From IMG/VR virus record IMGVR_UViG_2519899560_000004, positions 1 to 6,437 of that record: a stretch of 6,437 bases of DNA; one strand, 5' to 3'. The first letter of the stretch is position 1. The number at the start of each line of letters is the position of its first letter. This stretch comes from a virus. Taxonomy: Duplodnaviria > Heunggongvirae > Uroviricota > Caudoviricetes. The position numbers are program-made. Positions 3,001 to 6,000 of this stretch are shown here, one piece after another.

Positions 3001-6000
3001 CGGCTTCCCACCAACTCAGCGATTTCAATGCTTGTCATTTTGATGGCATTGCTATTTATCAGCTCATTCATTGTCATGTCCTCTCACATTGAAAATTCAG
3101 CAATAAAAAACCCAGCCGAAGCTGGGTTTGTTAAGTTGTCAATTGTCAGTAGCGATGCAGTGAAGGCGGCAACTCTTTGTTCTTAAGCCTTTCCCATGCC
3201 AGAAGGTTCGTCGGCCCGTCAGGCTCATAAATATCTATATCCCGCGTGTGATTAATTAAAACGCCCCTCGCCCTCCCGATGATATACGAGAACTCATAGC
3301 CGTAGTCGTGGCATATGCCGGAATAGCCAGACTGAATCAGTTTTAATGCGGGATACAACTCACGGAACAATGCCTGTGAGCGGTTGGCATAATCCCACAG
3401 CCATACAAGGCTGTCTGTTTCTTTTGCGGAAAGCCCGTTGAGCTTCTTCTCTTGTTTGCCAGTATTTTTCTCGCACTGGCTGAAATAGCAGTCTTCCAGT
3501 TTTTCGAACACATCCCACGCCTGATCAGTTTCGAGCATTTTTGCGTGACGGGCTGCGCCGCGTTCTGTCCAGAGGATGAGGGAGCGGGCATTTTTACCAA
3601 CTAACCCGATTGTTTCGGGTCTGTTCTTAAACTCGCGTAATTCGTTTTTTTCAATTTTAAAGTAATGCTTTCCGGGCATGAATCGCGTCGTGTTGTTCAG
3701 AAAGTTATCAGAAATGTTTTTGATTTTTGTTCCGTAAAGGTGAGCCAACAGTTCAGTAGTAATTACGGGGATCTGGTTATAGGTAACAGGGGAAAGGTTT
3801 TCGACAGAAATTTGAACAGCCATAATGACCTCGCGTTTCGATTATTTTTACCTCGCCACCGTCAGGTGCTAATCATCGTGGTGGCGAACTGTGCGGGGTT
3901 AGCACTACCGGTCGAAACATCCGGCGAGCCTTTCGGCTCCCCCACACAGCCCGCCATAAATCGCGAATGTGACTGTGCTTAGCGCATAAAAAAACCGCCA
4001 GCGCGGTTATGCACCGTTTCGATATCCGGGGTGCTAATCCCGACGCCAGATTTTGCTGGCGCGTGAGGAATATAGCCCCGAATAAATCATCGCGTCAATC
4101 ACCTTGTTTTCCTCGCACGATGTCTTAGCCACCGGATATCCCACAGGTGAGCCGTGTAGTTGAAGGTTTTTACGTCAGATTCTTTTGGGATTGGCTTGCG
4201 TTTATTTCTGGAGCGTTTCGTTGGAAGGTATTTGCAGTTTTCGCAGATGATGTCGGTGATACTTCGTCGCTGTCGCCTCATGCAGCCCTCCTGACGCCCA
4301 GCCCGATCGCCATCAATGCCGCTTTGGATACGGTAGTAAACATCCGTCGAGGACTGATGAACGGTCGCCAAATCAGCAACATTGAGCCTTTGCTGTTTCC
4401 CTTCTTCTCCAGCCCTGTCGATGGTTCGATAAAATTAATCCGTCCATCAGTGATGATGCGAACTTCGTCAACACTCTCCAGAGCCTTGCTGAACCATCCG
4501 ACTGACATATCCTCTGGCACAAGCATAACTACCGTCTGTCGCTGTTGTATGCACTGCTCAGCGGCTTTTTCCACCCACGGCCTGATATTGCTGTACGGTG
4601 GGTTATTCCAGATTGCACCGTGGCTTACCCACTCAGAATTGAGCGCGTCGTCGGCCTCAGTTAGCCAGTGAGCACACAGAGCATTTTTGTCGCTCGCTGC
4701 CGAATCCAGCCAGAATCCAAACTCAATATCCAGTGCATCAAAAAGCCAAAGCGGCGTTTGCCAGCAGTCCTTGTTGTGTGCTGGCGTATTTGATTTGATA
4801 GTCATGCAGCCCGATCTCCCCATCGCGCTTTCATTTTTTCATTTGCAAATCGCCAGAATCTTCCTTTGTGATATGAGCTTTCGCCATTACAGCAACGACT
4901 AATTGACGAACTATCAAATCCTTCTCTGACAGCATCCATAGCTGCTTCATAATAAACCTCCTCCCCAGTTTTCATGTCAGTAGAAATAACAGCTTTACTG
5001 GCAGGATGGTCACCACTAAATTTACCTAGCGATATAGGTATTCTTCCATTTTGTTTATATCCGTGTTTTGAGTTTTCAGAATGTGATACCCATTCAAGGT
5101 TATCAGCCCTATTGTCATCTCTTCGCCCATTTTTGTGATTAACTACCAAGCCATCACAGAACCCTGTACAGAATGCTTTCGCAACTATCCTGTGGGCGCT
5201 GTATTTCTTACCGTATACCTTTATTTGAAGATATCCTGTCGACTTGCACTTGAATGGTTTTACACTAGTGCCATTAATTATTTTCTTATATGGCCTCTGT
5301 CTGGTTGATGTTACTGTAACTTCCCTCGTAATAGACCTGAAATTTCCTTTATTGCTAACCTGATAAAATGGAATCCCTTCGATATCTACCCAAACCTCAA
5401 TCATAATTCCTCCATTCGCTAAGATGAATTGAGTTCATGGCACAATATGCTTCTATGTAGTCCATTATTTCGGATATTTTTTTTACAGATAGAGTCGCCG
5501 TACTCTCTCTGATGTTTATTAGCTCACCTTCTAACCCTGATATAATCTCAGGGTGCTGGTTGGTTGCAATCTGCCAACCAGAAACGAATAACCCCTTCCA
5601 AAACTCAATATTTCTTGCTTTTCCGTGATATGTAGCCTTCTTACTTATTTCAGATAGCATCGCGTGAAGGCGTGCATTTTGCCGAATGCTGCGGTTGCGT
5701 TCCTGAATGGTTACTACGATTGGTTTGGTTGGGTCTGGAAGAATTTGCTGGATAGCTTGAATGGCGTTCTGCTGATGGATGGGGCTTCTTAGTTCAAATG
5801 TTAGTTTCCTCATCACCCTTAATCCTCTCGAAGTTCTTCTCGAAGTTTTTGGTGTCGAACACTGACCACCGACCATTATGAATGGCGTATGCACATGTCT
5901 TGTTTTCGTCCTGATAAACCACCCTTACCTTGCGATAAAACCGTGGCTTAATCTCTCTGAATATTTGCTCGCTCATGCTCACTCCTTCACTTTAAATCCA

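Follow-up and report, generated by a model that had tools for sequence, protein, structure and literature searches.

Integrating elements such as phage 21 and e14, which use icd, carry a diverged substitute for the end of the gene that they interrupt; the gene product stays complete, the displaced end remains, and a tyrosine integrase and att sites are used. Homing endonucleases of phages occupy other settings. I-HmuI and I-HmuII come from the Bacillus phages SPO1 and SP82 (PDB 1U3E), and the gene of I-HmuI lies inside a group I intron of the DNA polymerase gene. SegF, SegG and MobE of the T-even phages are encoded outside introns and inteins, between or overlapping genes of essential operons, are inherited with donor flanking sequence that gives chimeric neighbour genes, and are present or absent among related phages; free-standing phage endonucleases of this kind spread by intronless homing, with co-conversion of flanking markers and marker exclusion (PMC2988022, PMC2790892). 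Fusion proteins joining Orf to an HNH domain (DUF968) have been described from Gram-positive phages (PMC4118853). Here we describe the ninB locus in a 6,437-nt stretch of DNA from a virus of the Caudoviricetes (IMG/VR record IMGVR_UViG_2519899560_000004, positions 1 to 6,437), which we call the window and always take at its full length. In this locus ninB, an open reading frame (ORF) for an HNH endonuclease and dam follow one another on the minus strand of the window, and we propose that positions 4832-5687 are probably a free-standing, I-HmuI-like homing endonuclease cassette that moves with a linked replacement of the 3' two thirds of ninB, a reading based on comparative analysis.

The predicted enzyme resembles I-HmuI in fold, domain order and HNH motif, and the C-terminal DNA-binding end of I-HmuI (...HKG..W/F.F/Y) is also conserved in it. 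Unlike the intron-encoded I-HmuI, it is specified by a free-standing gene, and the protein, known from its sequence and a model, has an extra N-terminal NUMOD4 module and a nine-residue foreign tail. With SegF, SegG and MobE the locus shares the position outside any intron or intein, the inherited flank with its chimeric neighbour gene and the presence/absence polymorphism; it differs in that the host is a temperate lambdoid phage or prophage, that the co-inherited flank is strongly divergent (28% amino acid identity) and not near-identical, and that the right junction lies inside the target gene, where the ORF reads into the displaced end and borrows its stop and coupling signals. This read-through into a displaced gene end recurs across the family of the window enzyme. 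In contrast to the icd-type elements, no integrase, att site or repeats flank the block, and the remnant is translated within the endonuclease. The DUF968 proteins likewise bring Orf/NinB-like and HNH modules side by side in phage recombination regions, but as a single polypeptide with a zinc-finger HNH, whereas the window has two ORFs in different frames with a stop between them and an HNH of the I-HmuI type.

The evidence for a replacement comes from comparison with lambda-type ninB genes. Codons 1-42 of the window ninB are 87% identical in nucleotide sequence to ninB of phage SfI and of lambda, the last 61 nt being identical, while the 291 nt immediately 5' of the HNH gene are 47% identical to lambda-type ninB, the value for shuffled controls being 49%; protein identity to lambda NinB is 88% over the 42 N-terminal residues and 28% over the other 96. 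The window is colinear with the intact ninB of SfI, lambda and Escherichia coli TUM12368 through ...CGCAACCGCAGC and again from AAAGCGCG onwards, and between these two points no alignment to the three genes was found. The left boundary falls in the most conserved block of ninB (...ERNRS), where CGCAACCGCAGC (12 nt, 5699-5688) is the shortest sequence common to all ninB backgrounds that bear the cassette. The right junction, TGG/AAAGCG (a slash marks the join), lies directly after the resident Trp137 codon, and the 30 nt beyond it match the 3' end of intact ninB at 30 of 30 positions in SfI and TUM12368 and at 27 of 30 in lambda, a match that is evidently not due to chance. GC content is 39.1% in both halves of the cassette and 46-52% in the flanks. 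As read from these alignments, the cassette replaced codons 43-137 of a lambda-type ninB, and the ninB of the window is a chimera of a lambda-type N-terminal third and a foreign RAGNYA/C-terminal part (codons 43-138; ninB' and NinB' below). Because the cassette boundary comes after Trp137, nine resident codons are left, through which the endonuclease ORF continues in frame to the old ninB stop; the same 30 nt bear the GGGGAG Shine-Dalgarno sequence of dam.

An initial annotation, made from the sequence alone, had described the locus as an HNH gene of about 580 bp inserted behind a Trp codon of ninB. We have found every feature that it listed: the ...SEWRNYD end with its stop, the overlapping ATG and GGAGG, the low-GC HNH gene, the KARWGDRAA tail and the ATGA overlap. 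The lambda NinB ending that it gave was correct, as translation of J02459 (40644-41084) gives a C-terminus of ...LEWKARWGDRAA, ending ...ARLALEWKARWGDRAA (...LALEWKARWGDRAA). An I-HmuI-type HNH homing-endonuclease gene is indeed lodged at the 3' end of ninB, and KARWGDRAA is a true remnant of a lambda-type ninB that starts right after the resident Trp137 codon (TGG/AAA GCG). The kind of event needs revision. Between the empty and the filled allele 285 bp were swapped for 856 bp, and of the two flanks that a clean indel predicts to align contiguously with an intact ninB, the right one does so at 100% and the 291 nt on the left remain at the shuffle level. The continuity EW/KARW seen across the HNH gene also dissolved on alignment: MAFFT places ...SIHLSEWRNYD against lambda ...GVKWSDEARLA, so that the SEW Trp of the window NinB meets ...SDE and not the LEW Trp (Trp137), and the continuity is therefore coincidental. 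The expected low GC content was found in the HNH body (38.8%; 60% in the 30-nt tail, 52% in the tail plus dam); the ninB' segment is equally low.

Empty and filled sites, which the initial annotation expected among related prophages, were found in a filled IMG/VR locus (L043) and in E. coli ET650 (L017), which has an intact lambda-type ninB, although their difference is not that of a simple insertion. Their upstream 690 nt align gap-free at 98.0% identity, and their tails agree at 29 of the 30 positions; between these flanks lie the 856-nt cassette in L043 and 285 nt, the lambda-type codons 43-137, in L017. A repeat search found no direct or inverted repeats at 4832 or 5687, and the cassette holds no integrase or transposase gene; a transposon or integrative origin was considered and dropped, since flanking repeats, an att site and an integrase are all missing. 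No intron or other RNA was found by Rfam in 4802-5813. Promoter and terminator scans of 4200-6437 gave fewer matches than shuffled sequences and none on the coding strand near the cassette, which appears to rely on read-through transcription and translational coupling.

The signals for this coupling are contained in the two gene overlaps (Table 1). On the minus strand the 3' end of ninB reads GAA TGG AGG AAT TAT GAT TGA; the ATG of the HNH gene (5404-5402) lies inside TATGATTGA, and GGAGG stands four bases 5' of it. The HNH gene thus has its own ATG and GGAGG, the upstream ORF ends with TGA in another frame, and the gene is free-standing, outside any intron or intein. GGAGG and the 8-nt overlap show the HNH gene to be, as far as such signals can be read, translationally coupled to ninB; the overlap recurs in Salmonella, Yersinia and metagenomic relatives, and diverged relatives have GGAG-type motifs at the equivalent position. 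At the other end, the enzyme sequence ...HKGRFWRFANEKM passes into KARWGDRAA (4831-4805; ...GRFWRFANEKM-KARWGDRAA) and the stop TGA (4804-4802). The retained GGGGAG...ATGA shows dam to be coupled, by the same reading, to the HNH ORF, and the proposal that coupling to the downstream gene was kept through the resident stop and its ATGA overlap is upheld. The dam gene of the window is 96.6-98.1% identical to dam in phages without the cassette, and positions 4278-6437 as a whole match Stx2-converting phage 86 and prophages of Shiga toxin-producing E. coli (STEC) strains at 100% identity.

Table 1. Positions of the genes, overlaps and cassette segments in the window
Feature	Positions	Strand	Description or basis
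ninB	5397-5813	-	138 aa, ending ...IHLSEWRNYD; stop at 5399-5397
HNH ORF	4802-5404	-	200 aa; NUMOD4 and HNH_3 by Pfam
dam (phage N6-adenine methyltransferase), resident gene downstream	4278-4805	-	Pfam Dam, 216 bits
Resident lambda-type ninB codons 1-42 (MRKLTFELRSPIHQQNAIQAIQQILPDPTKPIVVTIQERNRS)	5688..5813	-	nucleotide identity to SfI and lambda
Foreign cassette, 856 bp: divergent ninB codons 43-138 and HNH gene through Met191	4832..5687	-	GC, boundaries, diversity
ninB' segment, codons 43-138 and stop (IRQNARLHAML...IHLSEWRNYD)	5397..5687	-	no DNA similarity to lambda-type ninB
HNH ATG/ninB' stop overlap ATGATTGA, 8 nt	5397..5404	-	read from sequence
Shine-Dalgarno GGAGG of HNH gene	5409..5413	-	from TGG AGG, within ninB' codons Trp-Arg
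HNH body, residues 1-191: NUMOD4, HNH_3, I-HmuI-like C-terminal DNA-binding region	4832..5404	-	Pfam, 1U3E match
Tail AAAGCGCGATGGGGAGATCGGGCTGCATGA (KARWGDRAA and stop), last nine codons and stop of displaced lambda-type ninB	4802..4831	-	30/30 match
ATGA stop/start overlap of HNH ORF (formerly ninB) with dam	4802..4805	-	dam ATG 4805-4803

The HNH ORF has the domain content of a homing endonuclease. Pfam finds NUMOD4 at the N-terminus (51.3 bits, cut-off 23.4) and HNH_3 (PF13392) at residues 69-112 (43.5 bits, cut-off 24.8); a C-terminal I-HmuI_NUMOD-like match is below threshold (19.2 against 27), although alignments to 1U3E reach residue 186 nonetheless (E=3.7e-14, residues 55-186). The AlphaFold2 (AF2) model has a predicted local distance difference test (pLDDT) value of 92.8, and with it Foldseek returned 1u3e_M as the only PDB match at E<=0.001 (E=9.6e-12, probability 1.00, template modelling scores 0.57/0.64). 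The sequence comparison, too, gave no significant PDB match other than I-HmuI. H90, N98, N102 and N111 are invariant across 50 homologues and align with the I-HmuI motif, in which we take the His to be catalytic and the Asn/Asp residues to bind metal; the Asp that precedes the His in I-HmuI (VVDHKDG) corresponds to Asn in the window enzyme (VVNHKNG). Among E. coli cassettes 14 polymorphic sites of the HNH gene are synonymous and 7 are nonsynonymous, against a neutral expectation of 80% nonsynonymous (p=6e-6, by a simple count that ignores relatedness and transition bias), and by this count the HNH ORF is under purifying selection.

Comparison across the enzyme family sets the tail apart from the enzyme. 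I-HmuI ends 4 residues past its ...FRY motif, HNH homologues at 65-79% identity end in ...FADERMAA, ...FAHERVNA or ...FGDKGKVAA, and pLDDT in the window model drops to 68 over the last ten residues; KARWGDRAA is therefore an add-on and not part of the enzyme. In agreement with the ninB origin given for it by the initial annotation, no homologue outside the ninB-linked cluster bears the exact KARWGDRAA tail. Many of the 120 HNH homologues have a C-terminal extension that is a NinB C-terminal sequence, for example ...WRFSDASRLEIEWATRWGKS, ...WRFGTEHGVKWADEAKAA and ...FAHAFGTQRGVEWSPTSLGRAA, and of 67 homologue tails compared with the last 30 residues of NinB proteins, 11 gave a match at E<=0.01, while shuffled or reversed tails gave 0 (the database being small, these E-values are relative). 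NinB' alleles at 60-86% identity have an HNH homologue at the same overlapping ATG; such pairs occur in Salmonella phage SEN22, a Yersinia kristensenii prophage, Pantoea, Mixta (where the gene is truncated by IS1) and metagenomes. Cassette-free NinB' relatives (55-65% identity) end in ...SERWAA, ...PERFAA or, in L015, ...WRTYND. In one lineage (L053) the NinB just upstream closes with ...AFGAEHDVKWGEAT, of which the end of the HNH ORF, ...RFGTEHGVKWADEAKAA, is a diverged partial duplicate; in L052 and L051, too, the tail repeats part of the NinB end in diverged form. Since simple insertion cannot make such duplications, they point to replacement of the resident 3' part with a right join inside the gene.

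Several loci extend this picture in other directions. HNH homologues at 52-68% identity lie directly after DUF1367 genes and not after ninB (L047 1544-2585, L048, L054 1043-2094). The L054 homologue has a NinB-like tail (...DRHGVRWSEPNPYEVTA) though its upstream gene is DUF1367, which suggests that a fused tail can travel with the enzyme. We considered the ...ERMAA end of the SEN22 protein as a two-codon remnant of a P22-type ninB and set this aside, as the same end is found in L047 beside DUF1367 and may be native to the enzyme. A 60-aa ORF that follows the cassette-free NinB' of L015 was considered as a decayed HNH N-terminus and had no Pfam match. On a metagenome contig (ERR15950877_315085; L010 2910-3458) another HNH_3 protein, which has a weak AP2 match but lacks NUMOD4, follows a 74%-identical NinB' through the same 8-nt overlap and has a NinB-like tail (...DWARRFGETKRAA; ...AIDWARRFGETKRAA); two endonuclease families thus share one insertion point. 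A second, unrelated HNH_3 gene of 175 aa lies between an intact lambda-type ninB and dam in E. coli TUM12368, E. coli ET650 and an IMG/VR locus (L016 1041-1568, L017 1002-1529, L045 2600-3127). The 5' end of dam provides the first nine codons of this gene (MTIKSNTPA), and the 3' end of the gene gives dam a new, diverged start (MIKHKSETPKEVR/DCWQTP), the mirror image of the window arrangement; L045 has both endonuclease genes in tandem around the same 56-nt core of ninB tail and dam start.

The distribution of the cassette was examined in phage and bacterial genomes. In the phage collection the ninB' segment is always followed by the HNH gene (63 records at identities of at least 99% and 2 at 80-90%), and the next NinB relative after these is only 44% identical. 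A survey of 5426 complete E. coli genomes showed the cassette in 77, every copy being full-length and at least 95% identical, and its flanks are matched in 1984 complete E. coli genomes. Among 31 IMG/VR loci and three others there are 18 haplotypes, with both junctions identical throughout and the cassette at least 98.25% identical. Variable sites number 31 of 126 in the 5' part of ninB, 26 of 856 in the cassette and 6 of 30 in the tail. The 5' parts are 81-100% identical or unrelated; the partners on this side are two lambda-type variants or, in L044, an unrelated ninB start (MKCVKYHL...) joined at the same 12 nt, and those downstream are dam, ninE, ninC, a ninD-like gene or a second HNH gene. 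The tail has ten variants, which follow the downstream partner and not the cassette. The presence/absence polymorphism at one locus among related genomes that is expected of a free-standing homing endonuclease is therefore observed, and co-inheritance is seen as a pattern in the sequences, in that ninB' codons 43-138 always accompany the HNH gene and share its GC content and low diversity. A search of the genome contig collection with back-translated HNH peptide patterns gave 75 matches, none of which was upheld by tblastn.

Other loci have a decayed cassette or another content in this interval. Among decayed cassettes, ninB' is frameshifted by a 1-nt deletion in L031 and L036, the HNH gene is interrupted by 1.2 kb of inserted DNA in L046, and in Mixta (L013) it is cut by IS1; P0099, P0100 and P0102 are HNH proteins with a frameshifted C-terminus. 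In O157:H7 H2495 (L019 666-1305) and VT2-Sakai (L004), Lar and a VT2-Sakai-type ninB (ending ...EWSQRKGRAA) fill the whole interval between an upstream DUF7301 gene and a dam that are the same as those of the window; what they replace is a 62-aa ORF, the chimeric ninB and the HNH gene. The 62-aa ORF is at 5794-5982 of the window, minus strand, between the DUF7301 gene (5987-6202) and ninB.

The preferred explanation, the homing cassette with its linked replacement of the ninB 3' part, would work as follows. When phages co-infect a cell, or when a resident prophage is met, the enzyme would nick or cut cassette-free ninB alleles near their 3' end, and recombinational repair would copy the cassette into the broken allele. 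The ninB' segment would probably make the carrier immune to its own enzyme, and it would have been co-converted because, going left, homology that repair can use begins only at the conserved 5' block ...IQERNRS. The initial invasion of a lambda-type gene would require a non-homologous right-hand join at or near the break; in later spread the 5' block and the 30-nt tail could serve as homology arms. Of the three frames of the tail, only that of ninB stops at ATGA, the other two running into dam, one of them fusing the endonuclease to Dam; that all junctions are in frame would follow, as joins in the other frames would neither stop properly nor leave dam expressed. We infer these steps by analogy with the intronless homing of T-even phages (PMC2988022, PMC2790892).

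Several points weigh against this explanation, beginning with the fact that the homing step is something we infer. In lambdoid phages, modules are exchanged where short conserved sequences at gene boundaries allow ordinary recombination, and GGGCTGCATGA, which recurs at the ninB/dam and dam/ninE junctions, could yield sharp boundaries without an endonuclease. STEC prophages that are related to one another make up many of the 31 loci and 77 genomes, so that the haplotypes cannot count as independent. Only 1.4% of complete E. coli genomes have the cassette, a rarity not expected of a strong driver at equilibrium. The cassette-free NinB' relative L015 ends ...WRTYND with an overlapping ATG as well, and the short NinB' end may therefore predate the endonuclease. 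Finally, the I-HmuI metal ligand is, we assume, Asp74, and the equivalent position in this enzyme is Asn.

The same boundary motifs, which occur at successive nin gene junctions, would suit an explanation in which the ninB'-HNH block is an interchangeable module shuffled by general or Red-mediated recombination at conserved boundaries, with an endonuclease that is inactive or irrelevant to spread and a frequency that reflects hitch-hiking with successful Stx prophages. The Lar and VT2-Sakai-type ninB of O157:H7 between the same DUF7301 gene and dam is a typical module swap, and the low share of genomes with the cassette and the copies decayed by frameshifts and IS insertions are in keeping with it. 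We nevertheless consider such passive shuffling rather unlikely, as the cassette, with 3% variable sites across unrelated backgrounds, varies much less than the flanks on both sides (20-25%), the HNH ORF is apparently under purifying selection with an invariant catalytic motif, and the repeated independent fusions to NinB tails imply a specific association with ninB in place of random shuffling. The insertion proposed at the outset, in which an HNH gene of ~580 bp entered after the Trp of an intact ninB' ending ...SEW-KARWG...AA and the tail later became 100% identical to local lambda-type genes through homologous exchange, is already disfavoured and in our judgement distinctly unlikely. It draws on the GAATGG that stands both before the HNH Shine-Dalgarno sequence in ninB' and before the tail in intact lambda-type genes, on the cassette-free NinB' clade member P0032, whose end (...KKWSARWGA) shows that KARW-like tails occur there, and on the unrelated L010 HNH gene, which uses the same 8-nt overlap and ends ...DWARRFGETKRAA. 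Among 95 relatives, from a search of 5.8 billion proteins, there is no uninterrupted ninB' that continues ...SEWKARWGDRAA; moreover, the DNA of the left flank does not resemble the empty allele, lambda Trp137 is not the residue aligned with the NinB' Trp, the nearest HNH relatives have no tail, and the partial NinB-end duplications in related lineages are not producible by insertion alone.

It is also conceivable that the HNH protein acts as a partner of NinB, serving as a nuclease in recombination or repair, the linkage being selected for its benefit to the phage. Described fusions of Orf-like domains to HNH domains (PMC4118853) and the maintenance of linkage and coupling down to ~60% NinB' identity in Yersinia, Pantoea, Mixta and Salmonella speak for such a partnership, but NUMOD4, HNH_3 and an I-HmuI-like DNA-binding tail form the architecture of a site-specific homing enzyme, most ninB genes have no HNH gene, homologues also adjoin DUF1367 genes, a different HNH gene occupies the same site in L010, and the scars and partial duplications record invasions; we find it very improbable indeed. 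Beyond the homing cassette itself, a wider reading is possible, which we offer tentatively: the enzymes would be a family of ninB specialists, and gene-end-replacing homing a general strategy in temperate phages. The family would invade a protein-coding gene without an intron or intein, carrying as a patch a divergent and presumably self-immune 3' part of the target that keeps NinB functional, and its ORF would read into the leftover gene end and use the stop, Shine-Dalgarno sequence and ATGA coupling found there. The start points of the NinB tails, which leave 2 to ~20 codons depending on lineage, would then mark break or join sites of independent invasions, and the unrelated HNH gene would mirror the strategy at the 5' end of dam, both occurring in tandem around the 56-nt junction.

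The chimeric NinB retains the complete Pfam NinB domain (PF05772, 137.7 bits, profile positions 2-129 of 131) but not the end of the lambda C-terminal helix: its stop is at the position aligned to lambda residue 134, W137 is wholly absent, and the codons for R140 and W141 have become part of the HNH ORF tail. The helix end is likewise missing from many NinB' clade members. In lambda, W137A, R140A and W141F reduced DNA binding only modestly, and the C-terminal helix was described as flexible (PMC4118853). From these modest effects and the clade members without the end, we expect the loss of lambda residues 135-146 to cost little. The window gene is in this respect a natural experiment on NinB/Orf, in which the combination of a lambda-type N-terminal third with a remainder of 28% identity and no helix end is evidently tolerated.

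Two further observations concern the surrounding nin region. The motif (A/G)GGGCTGCATGA ends both the ninB tail (window 4802-4812) and dam (4278-4291, ...GVRRAA) on the minus strand, each time overlapping the ATG of the next gene, and joins ninB to ninC or ninE in other phages (L019 and L018 also bear it); it may be a short recombination linker between nin genes. At 3877-4075 (minus strand) Rfam gives gathering-level matches to C4 antisense RNA (3877-3961), isrK (3988-4062) and the c4 a1/b1 target (4023-4075), upstream of a 225-aa ORF (3146-3823, minus strand) whose counterpart in related phages is annotated as antirepressor Ant; the region looks like a P1/P7-type antisense immunity module within the nin region.

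Dozens of records list the HNH gene as an HNH endonuclease or a NUMOD4 protein, and pipelines label the 200-aa product "NUMOD4 domain-containing protein", while its last nine residues come from another gene. In the searchable literature we found no description of a chimeric ninB, a translated ninB remnant or a family-wide tail fusion; free-standing homing endonucleases with a co-converted flank are already known, and the gene-end-replacing form with in-frame read-through in temperate phages looks new from these sequence comparisons. The leftover in-frame tails act as molecular scars that would record the join point of each invasion, and they give the uncharacterised enzyme family a testable target region, the ninB 3' end, that can be read from sequence alone. 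To our knowledge, nearly all experimental work on homing-driven mosaicism has been done in T-even and Bacillus phages. In Shiga-toxin and other lambdoid prophages a recombination gene is a chimera through what is probably a selfish endonuclease cassette, a concrete, dated case of how homing enzymes may drive mosaicism in temperate phages.

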